From the NCBI RefSeq assembly GCF_036365525.1, contig NC_090372.1, forward strand, positions 107,920,380 through 107,984,379: a stretch of 64,000 bases of DNA, read 5' to 3'. Below are positions 9,944-55,110 of this stretch, piece by piece. The DNA is from Heterodontus francisci. Its lineage: Eukaryota. The notes under the pieces are model-generated. The model was not told where the DNA came from. It worked only from the letters and a program-made list of their open reading frames with translations, and did not search any database. Position 1 is the stretch's first letter, and each line of letters starts with the position of its first letter. The position numbers and the translations under genes were made by a program.

Positions 9944-11544
9944 TGATCCCAACTGATCCCAAAATTCAATGAGGGAGACGTGGAAGTGGCTAGCTAAGAC
10001 TTGAACTCTCCTGATACAAAGCAGGCTAACAAGAAAAGCCCATGAGGTTTATTCCCTCTTGCCAGATGACAGTTCATCAAATTATGAACTGACAAAAAAT
10101 GTTATCCTTGGGGCACATGAGCCAGTACTGGAAGTTTACTGCCAGGAATTTCGAACCTTCAAGAAGCAAGCTGATCAAGCTCACCTGGAGTTTGAGCAAA
10201 ATAAGCAGCTGGCTTTTGACCAGTGATTGAGGCTCTTAAAGTGCAGACCAGCTATAAAATCTCAGAGAGGTAATTTTGCTAGGGGAATTTAAACACTCTC
10301 TCCGACTCTCCATAAATACTTGTGGAAGAACAAAAAGTTCATAGAGCCAGGCAAGTCACAGTTCTGGCTGATGAGTCTGCTTTAATATACAAGTAGGTTC
10401 CCCAGCGGAAAACCTTTCCAAGTCACCCCCACAAATCCGAAAAGGACTAAGGGTGGGAAGATGATAGAAGCCCAAGCAGTCTTGGGAGAAAGAGAAAAGC
10501 AGGAGATACAGCGGGCCCTCCTCCAGCCAAAAAGGAAGGTGCTGGAGGTAGGTGTGAGACCCGGAGACCTATGTGCTTCCATTGTAATAAAGCAGGTCAT
10601 CTAAGAGCTGACTGCTGGAAACTATGGGGAAAACCTGTAGGGCTAATCAGGGCACACCCGCTCAGTGAAGGAGAAAGGGCCCTGATGGAAAGCACAGATG
10701 AACAAGCTGTGGCTTTAACTGCAGACATAGTAAGGCCCAGGAAAAAAACTGCTGTAGGTGCAGGAAAATTGAATAGAATTCCTGAAGGTTATCAGAATTT
10801 TGTGTCTAAAGGAAAAGTAACCCCATACCCCTCGAGCAAGCAAGCCCAAAGTAATCCTCAGGGACACAGGGGCCACTAGATCTTTTTTACTGGGAAAAGG
10901 CCTGACCATTCCCCCAAAGAGTGTAATAAATACCAGAATGGTGGTAAATAGTATTGGAGGGCAGTGGATGCCTGTACCTTTACTTCGGATGTACTTGGAG
11001 TGCGACCTAGGTTCGGGACTGGTGACCGTTGCGATTGTCCCTAGTTTGCCTGTGGACGGGGTTGACCTGCTCCGAGACAATGATCTGGCACGGGGCAAAG
11101 ATGGTAGCTTCCCCAGTAGTGAAAGAGAGACCGCAGGAGGTCAGAGAGACAGGGCAGTGGTGGGAGACAGTCCCCTGCAGTTTCCCTTCATGTGTAGTGC
11201 ATCAGGCCATGATCAAACCAGCTCCCCCAGAGGAGGCTGAATTGGTATTGCAGGAAGATGACCATGAGGTCTGTCTGTCTGAGACTTTCTTTGGAAAGTC
11301 AGAAGATCCAGGGAATGAATTAAATGAATCTTCTCTAGCTGAGGCTCAGCAAGCTGACCCAGTACTAAGAGAGTTAGCACTGGCTGCCCAGACTGAAATT
11401 GAAGCAGTGGGAGTCCCTGATTGCTATTATTTAAAGACTGAGGTACTGATGAGGAAACAGAGTTCTCCTCACAGACCTGAGAACAAAGAGTGGACAGTGG
11501 TTTACCAGTTAATGTGCTGCAGAGGCACCGGTGAGAAATATTAT

Positions 11545-11856
11545 ATATATTTTTTTATTTAGAGATACAGCACTGAAACAGGCCCTTCGGCCCACCAAGT
11601 CTGTGCCGACCAACAACCACCCATTTACAGTAATCCCATATTCCCTATCACCTCCCGACACTAGGGACAATTTACAACGGCCAATTTACCTATCACCTGC
11701 AAGTCTTTGGATGTGGGAGGAAACCGGAGCACCCGGCGAAAACCCGCGCAGACACAGGGAGAACTTGCAAACTCCGCACAGGCAGTACCCAGAATCAAAC
11801 CCGGGTTCCTGGAGCTGTGAGGCTGCGGTGCTAACCACTGCGCCACTGTGCCGCCC
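11545..11856 (-). mobile_element. tRNA-derived SINE (HE1-like)
   Basis: Minus-strand head gggcggcacagtggcgcagtggttagc (A box) and gggtttgattc (B box); CR1-like tail gggccgaagggcctgtttcagtgctgtatctc; TSD ATTA. Confidence 0.88.
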
Positions 11857-12970
11857 ATTAAGAATGGCCCACGAGATTACAGTGGCTGTACATGTCGGTA
11901 TACGGAAAACAAAAGCCTGCATAAGACAGCAGTTTGACTGGCAAAAACTCCACAAAGATGTAGTAGTGTACTGTAAGAGTTGCCACATGTTCCAGGTTGA
12001 GGGGAAACCCCAACCTACAATGAAATCTGCACCCCTAAGTTCTGTATCGGCGTTTGGAGGACCCTCCAGCAAAGGGCTGGTGAACTGTAAGGGACCCCTG
12101 CCGAGAACAAAAGGGGATAGACAGGCACAAGGCTGGCAAAAAGTTAGAGAGGAAAGAGGAAAAGGGGACAAAGTGGACAGGTTACAGAGGATCCGAGAGG
12201 ATTCGCAGATGAAAACCCCAACTGTCCAGTCAGCCAACTCCGAAATGTTGGAAAACGTAGACCCCATATTCTCCTATGTAAATGCAGACACCAGAAGCCA
12301 CCCAGTGATGCCTCACCTAGTCAAAGTGTCGCAGGGACATGCAGTAGAATTTGAACAAATAACTGCAAGCAGGAGTGTCCCAGAGGATAAATGGAAGATT
12401 AGCAAAGGATCCTTCCCTATAGTCAGAAGAAAAGGGAACCAACCCTCCCCGTAAAGTGAAAAGCCCTAGCATGACTCATCCGAACACTGTAAGAGAGTTC
12501 AGAGTGAATCACCCACTGCCAACTTCCATAATCAGCACTCCAAACCAGGGCTAATTAAATTTAACCCTTCCCCTGCAGATCTCAACAGGAACAAAGGCAC
12601 CCGAGATAGTCATGGAAATATGCAACCTGCAAACCTCCCCAAAAATCACATGTTTATTGGGATGCCAAAAGGGCAGTGTAAAGCAGCACTGCTACCAAGA
12701 CAGGCTGTAACAATCTTTAGGATTTTTGAATGAGTGAGAATGAATGAGAGAAATGCATGTGTGCTTTCCTGCACTTTCTCTCCTTTCTTTTTTTTTATTG
12801 AAAACGCTCTTCTAAAACTGCATGTCATTCCGCTTGATGTGGAGGTGTAATGAAATCCACACCTGCCAAAGTGAGACATGTTGGTTTCGTCATATGGAGC
12901 ATTCATTTTAAACTGTTACAGGCCTGAAAAAAAAGCTTTCTTTAAAAGAGCACTGAAACACGACGGCTTG

Positions 12971-20564: not shown

Positions 20565-20825
20565 CTCGCGCCGAAGCTTTCGGAAGATTGACGCACATGC
20601 GCACACGGGCTTTGGTCATCTGCGCATGCGCTGCGGTCCGGATTGCCAGGACCAGTTTGCGCATGCGCAAAGGCCAACCTGGCGTGTTCCCCGAGGATGA
20701 CGTTACGCGATGACGTCATCTGCGCATGCGCAAACTGGTCCTGGCAATCCGGACTGCAGCGCATGCGCAGAGGGCCTGAGACCGTTTGCGCACCGCGGCG
20801 CATCCTGATGACGTAGCGTTGTCAT
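20565..20825. promoter_or_regulatory. CpG-rich palindromic cluster of NRF1-like (TGCGCATGCGCA) and CRE (TGACGTCA) motifs
   Basis: 51-bp arms at 20619-20669 / 20721-20771 with one mismatch; four GCGCATGCGC motifs; TGACGTCA at 20711. Regulatory function is inferred only. Confidence 0.45.
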
Positions 20826-44655: not shown

Positions 44656-46342
44656 AGAATTAGAACATTACAGCGCAGTACAGGCCCTTCGGCCCTCGAT
44701 GTTGCGCCGACCTGTGAAACCATCTGACCTACACTATTCCATTTTCATCCATATGTCTATCCAATGACCACTTAAATGCCCTTAAAGTTGGCGAGTCTAC
44801 TACTGTTGCAGGCAGGGCGTTCCACGCCCCTACTACTCTCTGAGTAAAGAAACTACCTCTGACATCTGTCCTATATCTATCACCCCTCAACTTAAAGCTA
44901 TGTCCCCTCGTGTTTGCCATCACCATCCGAGGAAAAAGACTCTCACTATCCACCCTATCTAACCCTCTGATTATCTTATATGTCTCTATTAAGTCACCTC
45001 TCCTCCTCCTTCTCTCCAACGAAAACAACCTCAAGTCCCTCAGCCTTTCCTCGTAAGACCTTCCCTCCATACCAGGCAACATCCTAGTAAATCTCCTCTG
45101 CACCCTTTCCAAAGCTTCCACATCCTTCCTATAATGCGGTGACCAGAACTGCACGCAATACTCCAGGTGCGGTCTCACCAGAGTTTTGTACAGCTGCAGC
45201 ATGACCTCGTGGCTCCGAAACTCGATCCCCCTACTAATAAAAGCTAACACACCATATGCCTTCTTAACAGCCCTATTAACCTGGGTAGCAACTTTCAGGG
45301 ATTTATGTACCTGGACACCAAGATCTCTCTGTTCATCTACACTACCAAGAATCTTCCCATTAGCCCAGTACTCTGCATTCCTGTTACTCCTTCCAAAGTG
45401 AATCACCTCACACTTTTCCGCATTAAACTCCATTTGCCATCTCTCAGCCCAGCTCTGCAGCCTATCTATGTCCCTCTGTACCCTACAACATCCTTCGGCA
45501 CTATCCACAACTCCACCGACCTTCGTGTCATCCGCAAATTTACTAACCCACCCTTCTACACCCTCTTCCAGGTCATTTATAAAAATGACAAACAGCAGTG
45601 GCCCCAAAACACATCATTGCGGTACACCACTAGTAACTAAACTCCAGGATGAAGATTTGCCATCAACCACCACCCTCTGTCTTCTTTCAGCTAGCCAATT
45701 TCTGATCCAAAGCTCTAAATCACCTTCAACCCCATACTTCCGTATTTTCTGCAATAGCCTACCGTGGGGAACCTTATCAAACGCCTTACTGAAATCCATA
45801 TACGCTACATCCACGGCTTTACCCTCATCCACCTGTTTGGTCACCTTCTCGAAAAACTCAATAAGGTTTGTGAGGCACGACCTACCCTTCACAAAACCGT
45901 GCTGACTATCGCTAATGAACTTATTCTTTTCAAGATGATTATAAATCCTGTCTCTTATAACCTTTTCCAACATTTTACCCACAACCGAAGTAAGGCTCAC
46001 AGGTCTATAATTACCAGGGCTGTCTCTACTCCCCTTCTTGAACAAGGGGACGACATTTGCTATCCTCCAGTCTTCCGGCACTATTCCTGTCGACAATGAT
46101 GACATAAAGATCAAGGACAAAGGCTCTGCAATCTCCTCCCTAGCTTCCCAGAGAATCCTAGGATAAATCCCATCTGGCCCAGGGGACTTATCTATTTTCA
46201 CACTTTCCAAAATTGATAACACCTCCTCCTTGTGAACCTCAATCCCATCTAGCCTAGTAGTCTGAATCTCAGTATTCTCCTCGACAACATTTTCTTTCTC
46301 TACTGTAAATACTGACAAAAAACTTTCTCTACTGTAAATACT
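44656..46342 (-). mobile_element. Young 5'-truncated CR1 LINE
   Basis: RT ORFs 45614-46516 and 44729-45607 share a frame with one stop after GVPQ; (ttctaa)n tail. Confidence 0.95.
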
Positions 46343-46943
46343 ATCCTCACTGTGAAGACAGAACTTGGCCTCCAAAACATCTGTACAGTGGTCACTTCCT
46401 ACCAATATTATCATGGACAGATGCATCTGCAACAGGTAGATTGGTGAGGACAAGGTCAAGTTGGTTTTTGCCTCGTGTTGGTTCTTTTGGCACCTGCCAT
46501 AAACCCAGCCTGGCAACTTTGTCCTTCAGGACTGTTCCAGCTCTGTCAGTGTTGGTACCACCAAGCTACTCTTGGTGATAGATATTGAAGTCCCTCACCT
46601 AGAGTACATTCTATGCCCTTGTGCTTCTTCCAAATGGTGTTAAACATGGTGGAGTACTGATTCAAAGTGGTAGGTGATAATCAGGAGGAGGTTTCCTTGC
46701 CCATGCTTAATTTCATGCCATGGAACTTCACAAAGTCCAGACTGTACACCACTGCGCCACCGCTTCTGTTAGGTCATATACAGGGCTGGTGATGGAGGAG
46801 TTTGCAACGTTGGCTGCTATGATTTTCAAAATATGACAATTTCAGCTCTGACTAGACTGTGAGACAGCTTTCCCTACATTGAAACAACCCCCCAGATCAG
46901 GAGGACCACACAGGATTGATAGGGTTGGTTGAGTCTTTGCCTT

Positions 46944-49779
46944 AGAACAAAGAACAAACAAAGAACAAAGATAATTACAGCACAGGAACAGGCCCTTCGG
47001 CCCTCCAAGCCTGCGCCGATCCAGATCCTCTCTCTAAACATGTCGCCTATTTTCTAAGGTTCTGTATCTCTTTTCTTCCTGCCCATTCATGTATCTATCT
47101 AGATACATCTTAAAAGACTCCATCGTGCCCGCATCTACCACCTCCGCTGGCAATGCGTTCCAGGTGCCCACCACCCTCTGCGTAAAGAACTTTCCACGCA
47201 TATCCCCCCTAAACTTTTCCCCTTTCACTTTGAACTCGTGTCCTCTAGTAATTGAAACCCCCACTCTGGGAAAAAGCCTCTTGCTATCCACCCTGTCTAT
47301 ACCTCTCATGATTTTGTACACCTCAATCAGGTCCCCCCTCAACCTCCGTCTTTCTAATGAAAATAATCCTAATCTGCTCAACCTCTCTTCATAGCTAGCG
47401 CCCTCCATACCAGGCAACATCCTGGTGAACCTCCTCTGCACCCTCTCCAAAGCATCCACATCCTTTTGATAATGTGGCGACCAGAACTGTACGCAGTATT
47501 CCAAATGTGGCCGAACCAAAGTCCTATACAACTGTAACATGACCTGCCAACTCTTGTACTCAATGCCCCGTCCGATGAAGGAAAGCATGCCGTATGCCTT
47601 CTTGACCACTCTATTTACCTGCGTTGCCACCTTCAGGGAACAGTGGACCTGAACACCCAAATCTCTCTTGACATCAATTTTCCCCAGGACTTTTCCATTT
47701 ACTGTATAGTTCACTCTTGAATTGGATCTTCCAAAATGCATCACCTCGCATTTGCCCTGATTGAACTCCATCTGCCATTTCTCTGCCCAACTCTCCAGTC
47801 TATCTATATTCTGCTGTATTCTCTGACAGTCCCCTTCACTATCTGCTACTCCACCAATCTTAGTGTCGTCTGCAAATTTGCTAATCAGTCCACCTATACT
47901 TTCCTCCAAATCATTAATGTATATCACAAACAACAGTGGTCCCAGCACGGATCCCTGTGGAACACCACTGGTCACACGTCTCCATTTTGAGAAACTCCCT
48001 TCTACTGCTACTCTCTGTCTCCTGTTGCCCAGCCAGTTATTTATCCATCTAGCTAGTACACCTTGGACCCCAAGCGCCTTCACTTTCTCCATCAGCCTGC
48101 CATGGGGAACCTTATCAAACGCCTTACTGAAGTCCATGTATATGACATCGACAGCCCTTCCCTCATCAATCAACTTTGTCACTTCCTCAAAGAATTCTAT
48201 TAAGTTGGTAAGACATGACCTTCCCTGCACAAAACCATGTTGCCTATCACTGATGAGCCCATTTTCTTCCAAATGGGAATAGATCCTATCCCTCAGTATC
48301 TTCTCCAGCAGCTTCCCTACCACTGACGTCAGGCTCACCGGTCTATAATTACCTGGATTATCCCTGCTACCCTTCTTAAACAAGGGGACAACATTAGCAA
48401 TTCTCCAGTCCTCCGGGACCTCACCCATGTTTAAGGATGCTGCAAAGATATCTGTTAAGGCCCCAGCTATTTCCTCTCTCGCTTCCCTCAGTAACCTGGG
48501 ATAGATCCCATCCGGACCTGGGGACTTGTCCACCTTAATGCCCTTTAGAATACCCAACACTTCCTCCCTCCTTATGCCGACTTGACCTCGAGTAATCAAA
48601 CATCTGTTCCTAACCTCAACATCCGTCATGTCCCTCTCCTCGGTGAATACCGATGCAAAGTACTCGTTTAGAATCTCACCCATTTTCTCTGAGTCCAAGC
48701 ATAACATTCCTCCTTTGTCCTTTAGTGGGCCAATCCTTTCTCTAGTTACCCTCTTTCTCCTTATATATGAATAAAAGGCTTTGGGATTTTCCTTAACCCT
48801 GTTTGCTAAAGATATTTCATGACCCCTTTTAGCCCTCTTAATTCCTCATTTCAGATTGGTCCTACATTCCCGATATTCTTTCAAAGCTTCGTCTTTCATC
48901 AGCCGCCTAGACCTTATGTATGCTTCCTTTTTCCTCTTAGCTAGTCTCACAATTTCACCTGTCATCCATGGTTCCCTAATCTTGCCATTTCTATCCCTCA
49001 TTTTCACAGGAACATGTCTCTCCTGCACGCTAATCAACCTCTCTTTAAAAGCCTCCCACATATCACATGTGGATTTACCTTCAAACAGCTGCTCCCAATC
49101 TACATTTCCCAGCTCCTGCCGAATTTTGGTGTAGTTGGCCTTCCCCCAATTTAGCACTCTCCCTTTTGGACCACTCTCGTCTTTGTCCATGAGTATTTTA
49201 AAGCTTACGGAATTGTGATCACTATTCCCAAAGTAGTCCCCGACTGAAACTTCAACAACCTGGCCGGGCTCATTCCCCAACACCAGGTCCAGTATGGCCC
49301 CTTCCCGAGTTGGACTATTTACATACTGCTCTAGAAAACCCTCCTGGATGCTCCTTACAAATTCTGCTCCATCTGGACCTCTAACACTAAGCGAATCCCA
49401 GTCAATGTTGGGAAAATTAAAATCTCCTATCACCACCACCCTGTTGCTCCTACATCTTTCCATAATCTGTTTACATATTTGTACCTCTATCTCACGCTCG
49501 CTGTTGGGAGGCCTGTAGTACAGCCCCAACATTGTTACCGCACCCTTCCTATTTCTGAGTTCTGTCCATATTGCCTCACTGCTCGAGTCCTCCATAGTGC
49601 CCTCCTTCAGCACAGCTGTGATATCCTCTTTGACCAGTAATGCAACTCCTCCACCCCTTTTACCTCCCTCTCTATCCCGCCTGAAGCATCGATATCCTGG
49701 GATATTTAGTTGCCAATCATGCCCTTCCCTCAACCAAGTCTCAGTAATAGCAATAACATCATACTCCCAGGTACTAATC
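46944..49779 (-). mobile_element. Young CR1 LINE with nearly complete ORF2 (EN+RT)
   Basis: 295-aa and 557-aa ORFs in the same frame, separated by a single TGA at 48846; tgttctt-like repeat tail. Confidence 0.95.
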
Positions 49780-50654
49780 TGAATTCAGTGCCTCGGTCGA
49801 GGCTGATTGGTCCGTCCGATTTTATTCTTGTGATGTTTATTTCTAGCTGTTTGATTGGCTTGGTAGGTCATTTCAGATGGCAGTTTAGAGTCAGCTGTGC
49901 TGCTGTGGGGCCTGAGTCACTTTGAGGCCAGATTGCATAAGGAGCGCAGGTTTGTTCCCTAAAGGGCATTAATGAATCAGTTGGGTTTTTATGACAATCA
50001 ATAGCTTCATTGATACCATTACTGATGCCAGCTTTTGATTACAGATTTAGTCTTTTTTAACACTATCCTAATTCATAAAGTGTTATGGTGGGATTTTAAT
50101 TTAAAGATTATTAGTCCAGGCCTCTGCGTTGTTTGTCCAGAAACATAATCACAACACTAATGTAACCTATATGTAGTTATTTAAAAGAAAATGCATGGTT
50201 TTAAGAGAGACAAGAAGTTGATGGTGGTAATATCCAGTAACTTATAAACTCAACAGACAAATGAAATCTGATAAATTATCATATAATTTATATATATTGT
50301 CTATGACACAGTTCAGTGCAGCACAACATGGAAAAATAAGTTATGAGTTTCTACTTCAAATCCAATCTGTGCAAAAGGAAAATTGAACCCACTACTCACC
50401 TGGATGATTTAAATCTATTAATCAAACTGGCGTCAGGGATCATGAAGATAAAGTGACCACTCTTAGCCCTGAAAGACAAGCAGATAGGCTATAGTTTCCT
50501 CATTGGGCTATGCTGCACATGATGAAAGAGATGACATTAGGTTGAAGGACTAATTCAGTTCAGAGTATGCTGGGATACATTACTACAACTGGACATAAAA
50601 CTGGACCGTAAAAATACTGGAATTTTTAAAAAATGACCGAATTAATTTGAGAAT

Positions 50655-51390
50655 ATTGCTGAAAAAAGAGACATGCTAATGAAACTTTCCATCTTGCCCT
50701 CATCAGGGCAGGCACAAGAATGGCAAATTTCAAAGGGAGCAGCAATTTATACTGCATGAGAAAAGGGTGCTGATTGTTTGGCAAGTCGACTCTGGTCGAG
50801 GCATTGACATGGTGAATGCACCAGGGAACTATTGTCCTCCGCGCTTTTGTTTAATTCAGAAAAGGCGTATGTCCCAATGACTGGTGAATTGTATCAAACA
50901 ACATGTTCCTTCGGCTGTTCACAACAGGCAGAGTACTAACTGTACTCAACCAGCCCGTACTTGCAAAACTCAGAATACATTGTCTAACATTAGATGTGAT
51001 TCCGCGATTGGACAGCACGTACAGAAAAATCCTGAGTATGCTAAGAGTTTGCACTAACAACAAACTAAGAATTATCAGTCAGGCTCACAATGTGGCTTAT
51101 TTATTCTTGCTAGAAGCTACATATATTTATACGTAGGGACCTGTCCTCTCAAGGCAAAAGGAACATGGCCAGGCATTGCACCTTTTTTGAATTAAACAAG
51201 TATGATGGACAGTAGTTCCTTGCTGCATTCTGTATGGCAATGCCTCGACCAATTAGTGTGGACTTGCCAACCAATGAGCACCCTTTTCTCATGCAGGATA
51301 AATTGTTGCTCCCTTTGAAATTTGGCATTCTTGCATCTGTCCTGATGAGTGCAAGACGAAAAGCTTCGACAGCATGTCTTTTTCAGCAAT
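50655..51390 (+). mobile_element. Penelope-like element remnant: GIY-YIG C-terminus between inverted pseudo-LTRs
   Basis: About 210-bp diverged inverted repeats (50655-~50865 and ~51180-51390). The interior encodes frameshifted RCDSAIGQHV..NPEYAK and RIISQAHNVAYLFLLEATYIYT*GPVLSRQKEH, typical of the PLE endonuclease end. Hammerhead motif lies in the repeat. Confidence 0.8.
51337..51372 (+). ncRNA. Minimal type I hammerhead ribozyme motif in a Penelope-like terminal repeat
   Basis: CUGUC-CUGAUGA-GU(GCAAG)AC-GAAA-AGCU-UC/GACAG. Intact core boxes, perfect 5-bp stem I (CUGUC/GACAG), 2-bp stem II, palindromic stem III (AAGCUU), NUH triplet UUC. Confidence 0.8.
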
Positions 51391-51465
51391 GCCCAAGTTC
51401 TGTACTACCAAGTGACAATTTATTCGAACTTAAACCTCCATGATATTTATTTCGTTCTGTCCTAG

Positions 51466-51534
51466 TCGTGTCTGAAACAAAAGAACAAAGGAACTGTGGT
51501 TCAGAGGAGACTGAAATTGGAAACAGATGTAGAG
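51466..51534 (+). CDS. VWDE: VWDE small coding exon (probable exon 4), 69 bp, absent from the ORF track
   Basis: Acceptor ttctgtcctAG, donor AGAG|gtaagt. Phase 1-1 exon encoding (V)VSETKEQRNCGSEETEIGNRCR, similar to VWDE CGSDETETGGDCVR; preserves frame between the flanking exons. Confidence 0.88.
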
Positions 51535-54877: not shown

Positions 54878-55110
54878 CTAAACGTCCACCATCTCCAGCT
54901 GCTCTTGAAGTTGTGGCTGAATTAGATAATGGCAGTATTTACCTGAAATGTTCCTTTGAGAGCCCAGTCGTAAACAGTTCTCTTGGATTCATTATCGCTT
55001 GGTTCCGACTGGCACCTGATGGAACTAAAGAGGAGCTACGTCAGGAAACAACAGTCCAGACATTTTCTTTCATAGAATTGGATGGAGTAAATCTCAGGCT
55101 TGGGGACAGG
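54878..55110 (+). CDS. VWDE: VWDE coding exon (probable exon 5), 233 bp
   Basis: Acceptor tttaccAG, donor AGG|gtatgt. Encodes (A)KRPPSPAALEVVAEL...KCSF...AWFRL...KEELRQETTVQTFSFIELDGVNLRLGDR, matching VWDE [27 protein letters not shown]. Confidence 0.95.

Follow-up and report, generated by a model that had tools for sequence, protein, structure and literature searches.

A complete hammerhead ribozyme motif near the end of a long intron, on the strand from which the pre-mRNA is transcribed, raises the question of whether the host gene makes any use of it. Such a motif lies on the plus strand at 51337-51372 of the window (the whole stretch of 64,000 nucleotides of Heterodontus francisci DNA analyzed here), inside an intron of VWDE. 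The gene was recognized on the plus strand through exon peptides that matched the D8C_UMOD and Ig_VWDE models above the Pfam cut-offs. A donor after 23455 and an acceptor before 51466 delimit an intron of 28,010 nt, and the next acceptor is found at 54878; all three splice sites are phase 1, and the 69-nt exon at 51466-51534 (plus strand, phase 1-1) therefore preserves the reading frame. The AG/GT boundaries of this exon, its open frame, and the VWDE domains of the neighboring exons assign it to the host and not to the element discussed below. The predicted cut site precedes the exon by 98 nt, so these splice sites agree with the earlier note on this DNA, which had placed the motif on the VWDE strand, 98 nt before a 69-bp exon, at the end of a 28-kb intron. 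Our best explanation, to which we give a probability of roughly 84%, is that the motif is a family-majority hammerhead ending a broken Penelope-like insertion, that it is likely silent in the VWDE pre-mRNA, and that it is intact by chance.

Other repeats were seen in the window. A 195-nt near-palindrome at 20598-20792, shortly before a VWDE exon, is probably a fold-back repeat; its match to the Rfam model MIR918 was far below the cut-off. Long LINE-type ORFs for reverse transcriptase (RT) and endonuclease, together with broken ORFs, occupy 1276-2955, 44729-49784, and 10451-12454, and the broken ORFs look, by eye, like the remnant of an LTR element.

The letters of the motif bear out the complete core and perfect stem I that had been claimed for it. 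The CUGAUGA core occupies 51342-51348 and GAAA 51358-51361; stem I is formed by 51337-51341 with 51368-51372 (5/5 Watson-Crick pairs), stem II has 2 bp (51349-51350 with 51356-51357) and a 5-nt loop II (51351-51355), and H17 is C51367, which sets the predicted cut between 51367 and 51368. The 6-nt palindrome AAGCUU (51361-51366, plus strand) would supply stem III only between two ribozymes and could thus act as a dimer gate. With CUGANGA, GAAA, UH, and three stems, and with its ends in stem I, the motif is a type I hammerhead; all 36 of its 36 positions carry the family majority, and stem I covaries between families. A search pattern made of the core and the 2-bp stem II had 3,101 matches in the genome compared to 2 for the reversed control, and the motif is therefore not a product of chance. 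An Rfam scan of the window returned three matches at E ≤ 1 and no hammerhead, with models that may not cover minimal forms. Nested-pair folding of the motif in four contexts never gave the hammerhead as the minimum-energy fold. We did not hold this against the ribozyme, since the competing helix that was chosen is the helix of a predicted pseudoknot, and the folding model is blind to pseudoknots and to co-transcriptional kinetics.

This pseudoknot had been overlooked by the earlier note. Its predicted 5' strand, 51330-51334 on the plus strand, sits two bases 5' of stem I and is complementary to loop II, the extended helix reaching -7.9 kcal/mol, and the true 5' boundary of the ribozyme probably lies about 8 nt 5' of 51337, to take in this strand. 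The pairing is possible in 26/30 sampled genome loci. A scan of metagenome contigs yielded at least 121 loci, of which at least 78 belong to a single repeat family that shares the core, the 2-bp stem II, and the palindrome of the present motif but differs from it in stem I and loop II. Among the matches listed, the upstream strand complements the main loop in 61 of the 62 metagenome copies with enough flank. The metagenome family is a homologous element, whose endonuclease shares 47% identity over 62 aa (E 3e-17). In a 10-row alignment, which holds two lineages and, misaligned, a third family (L192), both sides had changed in 2/5 pseudoknot pairs and in 3/5 stem I pairs, and pairing stood at 93% compared to 31-39% in slid controls. 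Stems II and III were invariant in this alignment, partly because the search pattern had fixed both, and a search of the shark genome for a family in which the second pair of stem II had changed found none, with 31 matches compared to 25 in the control. The covariation corresponds to about one evolutionary event between two lineages, and on these sequences it gives moderate support to a contact between stem I and stem II. Pseudoknots of this kind are known from PMC3088659 (in excerpt), where they brace a stem II with one or two pairs; the example tested there depended on its knot for speed.

Two further hammerhead-like repeats came to light in these searches. The element at L192:416-476 (minus strand) is a third related one, with a longer linker, G-U pairs in the putative knot, and an extra base before the cut site. 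Eight of 30 loci (L112, L117, L121, L122, L129, L130, L135, and L139; about 1501-1526) hold another repeat with a hammerhead-like core, in which the loop is different and stem I lies three bases off the expected cut site.

The motif belongs to an insertion. A 5'-truncated Penelope-like element (PLE) at 50866-51420 on the plus strand, collinear with other genome copies, comprises the end of an ORF, a pLTR, the hammerhead, and a tail, and departs from the family majority at 55 of its 555 positions. Translation against other copies identified 50866-51190 (plus strand) as a decayed C-terminal GIY-YIG endonuclease ORF with stops and a frameshift. This fragment alone had no Pfam match; a better-kept genome copy matched PF01541 (GIY-YIG) at E 0.002, below the cut-off, and of five decayed ORFs tried, two had Pfam matches, to RVT_1 (E 0.0003) and to GIY-YIG (E 0.002), neither of which reached the cut-off. 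Longer genome copies encode an RT followed by a C-terminal GIY-YIG domain, with cysteines between the GIY and YIG motifs. No CX2-5CxxC linker finger was found by eye in these longer copies, and by the criterion given in the excerpts of PMC8557442 a finger-free linker would point to Penelope/Poseidon as the putative clade. The tail of about 30 nt (51391-51420, plus strand) is present in the sense arm only, the inverted arm aligning just to 51390, and the 3' ends of other copies range from 51383 to 51420.

The inverted arm (50655-50865, minus strand) is a second copy, more strongly 5'-truncated and joined to the first at their 5' ends, with 81% identity over 215 nt. Its hammerhead (50676-50711, minus strand) is broken: 8 of 36 positions are changed, A13 and the 3' side of stem I among them, as had been noted when the antisense partner was said to have lost its core and stem I. 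A search of the 6.0-Gb genome with 51181-51395 produced 3,491 candidates, 40 of which were scored and had 86-90% identity; a second element search gave 3,825 first-look candidates. The locus thus displays 5' truncation, an inverted copy, and a one-sided tail, traits of endonuclease-bearing (EN+) Penelope-like insertions, which in the excerpts of PMC8557442 likewise share a C-terminal GIY-YIG, 5' truncation, an adjacent inverted copy, and a one-sided tail of 30-40 bp. The motif lies in a repeat downstream of an RT-EN ORF, the location of PLE pLTR hammerheads, and both the sequence and the genome copies support the previous reading of it as a type I hammerhead from a Penelope pLTR, palindromic in stem III. 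A non-LTR retrozyme was ruled out, as the motif is a single sense unit from an ORF-bearing element and its partner is inverted and not tandem. The AT-rich 8-mers at 50640-50647 and 51417-51424, which flank the insertion and are identical at 7/8 positions, weakly suggest a target-site duplication. Elsewhere in the genome, two opposite-strand core motifs 32 nt apart at C1:50255520-50255603 form a miniature inverted insertion.

In an active element, tandem transcripts would be cut by the hammerheads and element RNA would be released, which is the model proposed for tandem pLTR ribozymes in PMC4209133 and PMC6765202 (both in excerpt). Two neighboring ribozymes would pair through the 6-nt palindrome and so complete stem III, and the short stem II (2 bp) would be braced by a pseudoknot between loop II and the nucleotides immediately 5' of stem I, as the covariation and the published hammerheads suggest. 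In the folding calculations the intermolecular palindrome duplex had -4.3 kcal/mol, and intramolecular stem III had a probability of 0.0. In the VWDE pre-mRNA, the ribozyme would be a lone monomer; no second family motif was found on the plus strand of the window. The inverted arm, transcribed 500-700 nt earlier, would pair with the emerging motif and zip through it as it is transcribed, leaving cleavage negligible and splicing unaffected by catalysis. When folded in its 791-nt context, most bases of the motif were paired with the inverted arm at a probability near 1, and the proposal that the inverted repeats would sequester the motif is thus also predicted by the fold. The lone monomer and the predicted sequestration together make silence likely. 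In the excerpted reports, single PLE hammerheads showed no cleavage and dimers cleaved at low rates (PMC4209133), single axolotl hammerheads were 6-22% cleaved per hour (PMC7229834), and one of nine Xenopus dimers cleaved (bioRxiv 10.64898/2026.07.22.740005). Hammerheads in which a pseudoknot accompanies a tiny stem II can be fast (PMC3088659), so the low rates seen elsewhere in PLEs may not transfer to this family.

Given a family of this size, the intactness of one copy has to be judged against the decay of the others. Among the first 30 distinct core matches (contig C1), stem I was kept in 17, the pseudoknot in 26, and all helices plus the palindrome in 13, which gives an estimate of about 1,300 motifs with all helices in the genome if the 13/30 share holds. 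Most of the contig C1 set belongs to a sister family that is about 75% identical and in which a stem I pair has changed from C-G to U-A, a compensatory exchange (18/32 rows). With about 1,300 complete motifs, a sense-strand intact motif near some exon is expected many times, and an intact hammerhead core is expected in this genome about every 2 Mb, which calls for caution over intronic finds. Of the motif itself, the genome holds 16 exact copies, 210 within one mismatch, and 1,400 within two. These counts imply about 5,300 subfamily copies, and from the one-mismatch class about 29 exact ones would be expected compared to the 16 observed (P = 0.006). The shortfall is partly due to sister-family variants; by hand count, 12 of 84 one-mismatch rows change position 1, among the matches listed. 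Inflation by the sister family or selection against active copies could each produce such a shortfall.

A further count was made on copies retrieved with queries that excluded the motif. These gave 56 alignments over the motif, or 53 after removal of 3 duplicates, of which 1 was exact, 16 had the core, and 7 had the core and stems with G-U allowed; a single deletion-bearing copy (17 differences) was excluded from the per-site rates. The chance of an exact motif was 1.1% per copy by a joint CpG estimate, which supersedes the 1.5-1.9% obtained with independent sites. Copies retrieved with a motif-containing query (core in 25/34) were set aside as biased toward intact ones. Non-CpG divergence of the motif in these copies was 0.064, much as in the endonuclease part (0.072) but lower than in the upstream pLTR (0.083), and the gap between the motif and the upstream pLTR may reflect subfamily structure or alignment-end bias. 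Exact copies are no commoner than neutral decay predicts. The suggestion that the motif cuts the intron or influences exon inclusion therefore finds no support at the level of the genome, where intactness is no better than neutral (16 exact copies vs about 29), and a role in VWDE splicing is highly unlikely.

The copy in VWDE is nevertheless clean. It has 0/36 changes in the motif compared to 55/519 in the rest of the element, and its perfect run of 93 nt (51298-51390), which includes the pseudoknot strand, compares with a maximum of 92 in 47 other long copies. Between the two arms, the changes are 0 vs 8 inside the motif and 13 vs 16 outside it (Fisher p = 0.03), a gap that exceeds those of all 19 other two-copy loci (largest gap 4). 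The copy is a mild outlier, at about 1% per copy, and this is weak evidence, since scans flag intact copies and hence sample the tail. In organisms B, C, and D, contigs pile deeply on the element, which shows the family to be abundant in all three, and swamp the alignment with paralogues; the unique flanks have scattered cover, and among the pieces listed none bridges the motif and its flank. Run X20 (organism D; RNA by guess) has contigs over the exon bins.

The clean 3' end might instead have been refreshed by gene conversion in an otherwise neutral relic, possibly with slight, inconsequential leaky cleavage. The absence of changes in 51298-51390, compared to 10% in the rest of the copy, would fit such an event, and potential donors exist in the thousands. 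However, the sampled donors are all decayed (1/53 exact) and would bring changes in, and perfect runs of 85 and 92 nt also occur in other copies, which makes conversion improbable.

The sense orientation, the 93-nt perfect run, and the 0-vs-8 asymmetry are also what one would see if the ribozyme had been domesticated, i.e., if selection had kept this copy to cut the VWDE pre-mRNA and tune either how often the 69-nt exon is included or the output of mRNA. Between the element and the exon, the final 45 nt of the intron would stay with the exon after the predicted cut, and intronic ribozymes on the sense strand have precedents in amniotes, namely the HDV-like ribozyme of CPEB3 (PMC10274809) and the hammerheads of RECK and C10orf118 (PMC6155905, PMC3088659). 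In the excerpts of these sources, however, the precedents show conservation between species and cleavage by the monomer, whereas the motif here is one copy of an abundant repeat. About 1,300 equally complete motifs exist genome-wide with no excess of exact copies, the window holds no dimer partner in cis, the inverted arm is predicted to sequester the motif, and stem III shows none of the strengthening that a monomer would need. We therefore consider domestication very unlikely.

An effect of the inverted repeats without catalysis, with the duplex altering access to the splice site or undergoing ADAR editing, appeared equally doubtful. The predicted duplex of about 210 bp ends 75 nt before the acceptor, and the 791-nt region folds at -363.5 kcal/mol. 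The arms are, however, at 81% identity, only 2 of 13 sense-arm changes coincide with changes in the other arm and none of them is matched, and insertions of this type routinely carry such inverted pairs. Least likely of all, and scarcely to be expected, is a gated intronic ribozyme in which a fast, knot-braced hammerhead, repressed by the inverted arm, is switched on by the palindrome of Penelope RNA acting in trans and cuts VWDE, which, if true, would couple host splicing to transposon RNA levels. As a control element of VWDE, the motif is most likely of no importance.

The probably silent relic still documents a family that differs from known PLE hammerheads. Those in the excerpts of PMC4209133 share the type I form, a location in the pLTR after RT and GIY-YIG, the full core, G10.1-C11.1, and a palindromic stem III; as here, the opposite strand often bears a second motif, at a distance of 100-700 bp. 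In contrast, helix II has 2 bp here compared to at least 3 bp in the supplement rows of that paper, and the extra base that its min-HHR consensus has between positions 9 and 10.1 is missing; the motif is therefore a variant and not a strict min-HHR. The loop II pseudoknot, which covaries here, is not a feature of the hammerheads in the excerpts of PMC4209133, and cartilaginous fish are absent from the table given there. The pseudoknotted hammerheads of PMC3088659 (in excerpt) likewise have a knot between stem I and stem II that braces a stem II with just one or two pairs, and such forms make up about 40% of that set and include types I, II, and III. The example tested there was a type II metagenome ribozyme, whereas the present knot lies in a Penelope pLTR and accompanies a stem III that requires a dimer. 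No shark or pseudoknotted PLE hammerhead appeared in the titles and abstract openings searched, though Lunse et al. 2017, on dimeric PLE hammerheads, may cover one. At the family level, the union of dimer gate and pseudoknot is a modest departure from known forms, and its value lies in a testable design, a Penelope hammerhead whose stem III would need a dimer and in which a pseudoknot would take over from a long stem II. Published PLE hammerheads show poor cleavage, dimers included, and the braced variant may be a fast case for testing their role in transposition. The tail also carries a shared stretch: 17 of the 18 positions of 51394-51411, downstream of the motif, are common to the shark families and the metagenome family (compared at the window, L193, L194, and L208), whose endonucleases are just 36-47% identical, making it a candidate recognition signal for the RT or endonuclease.
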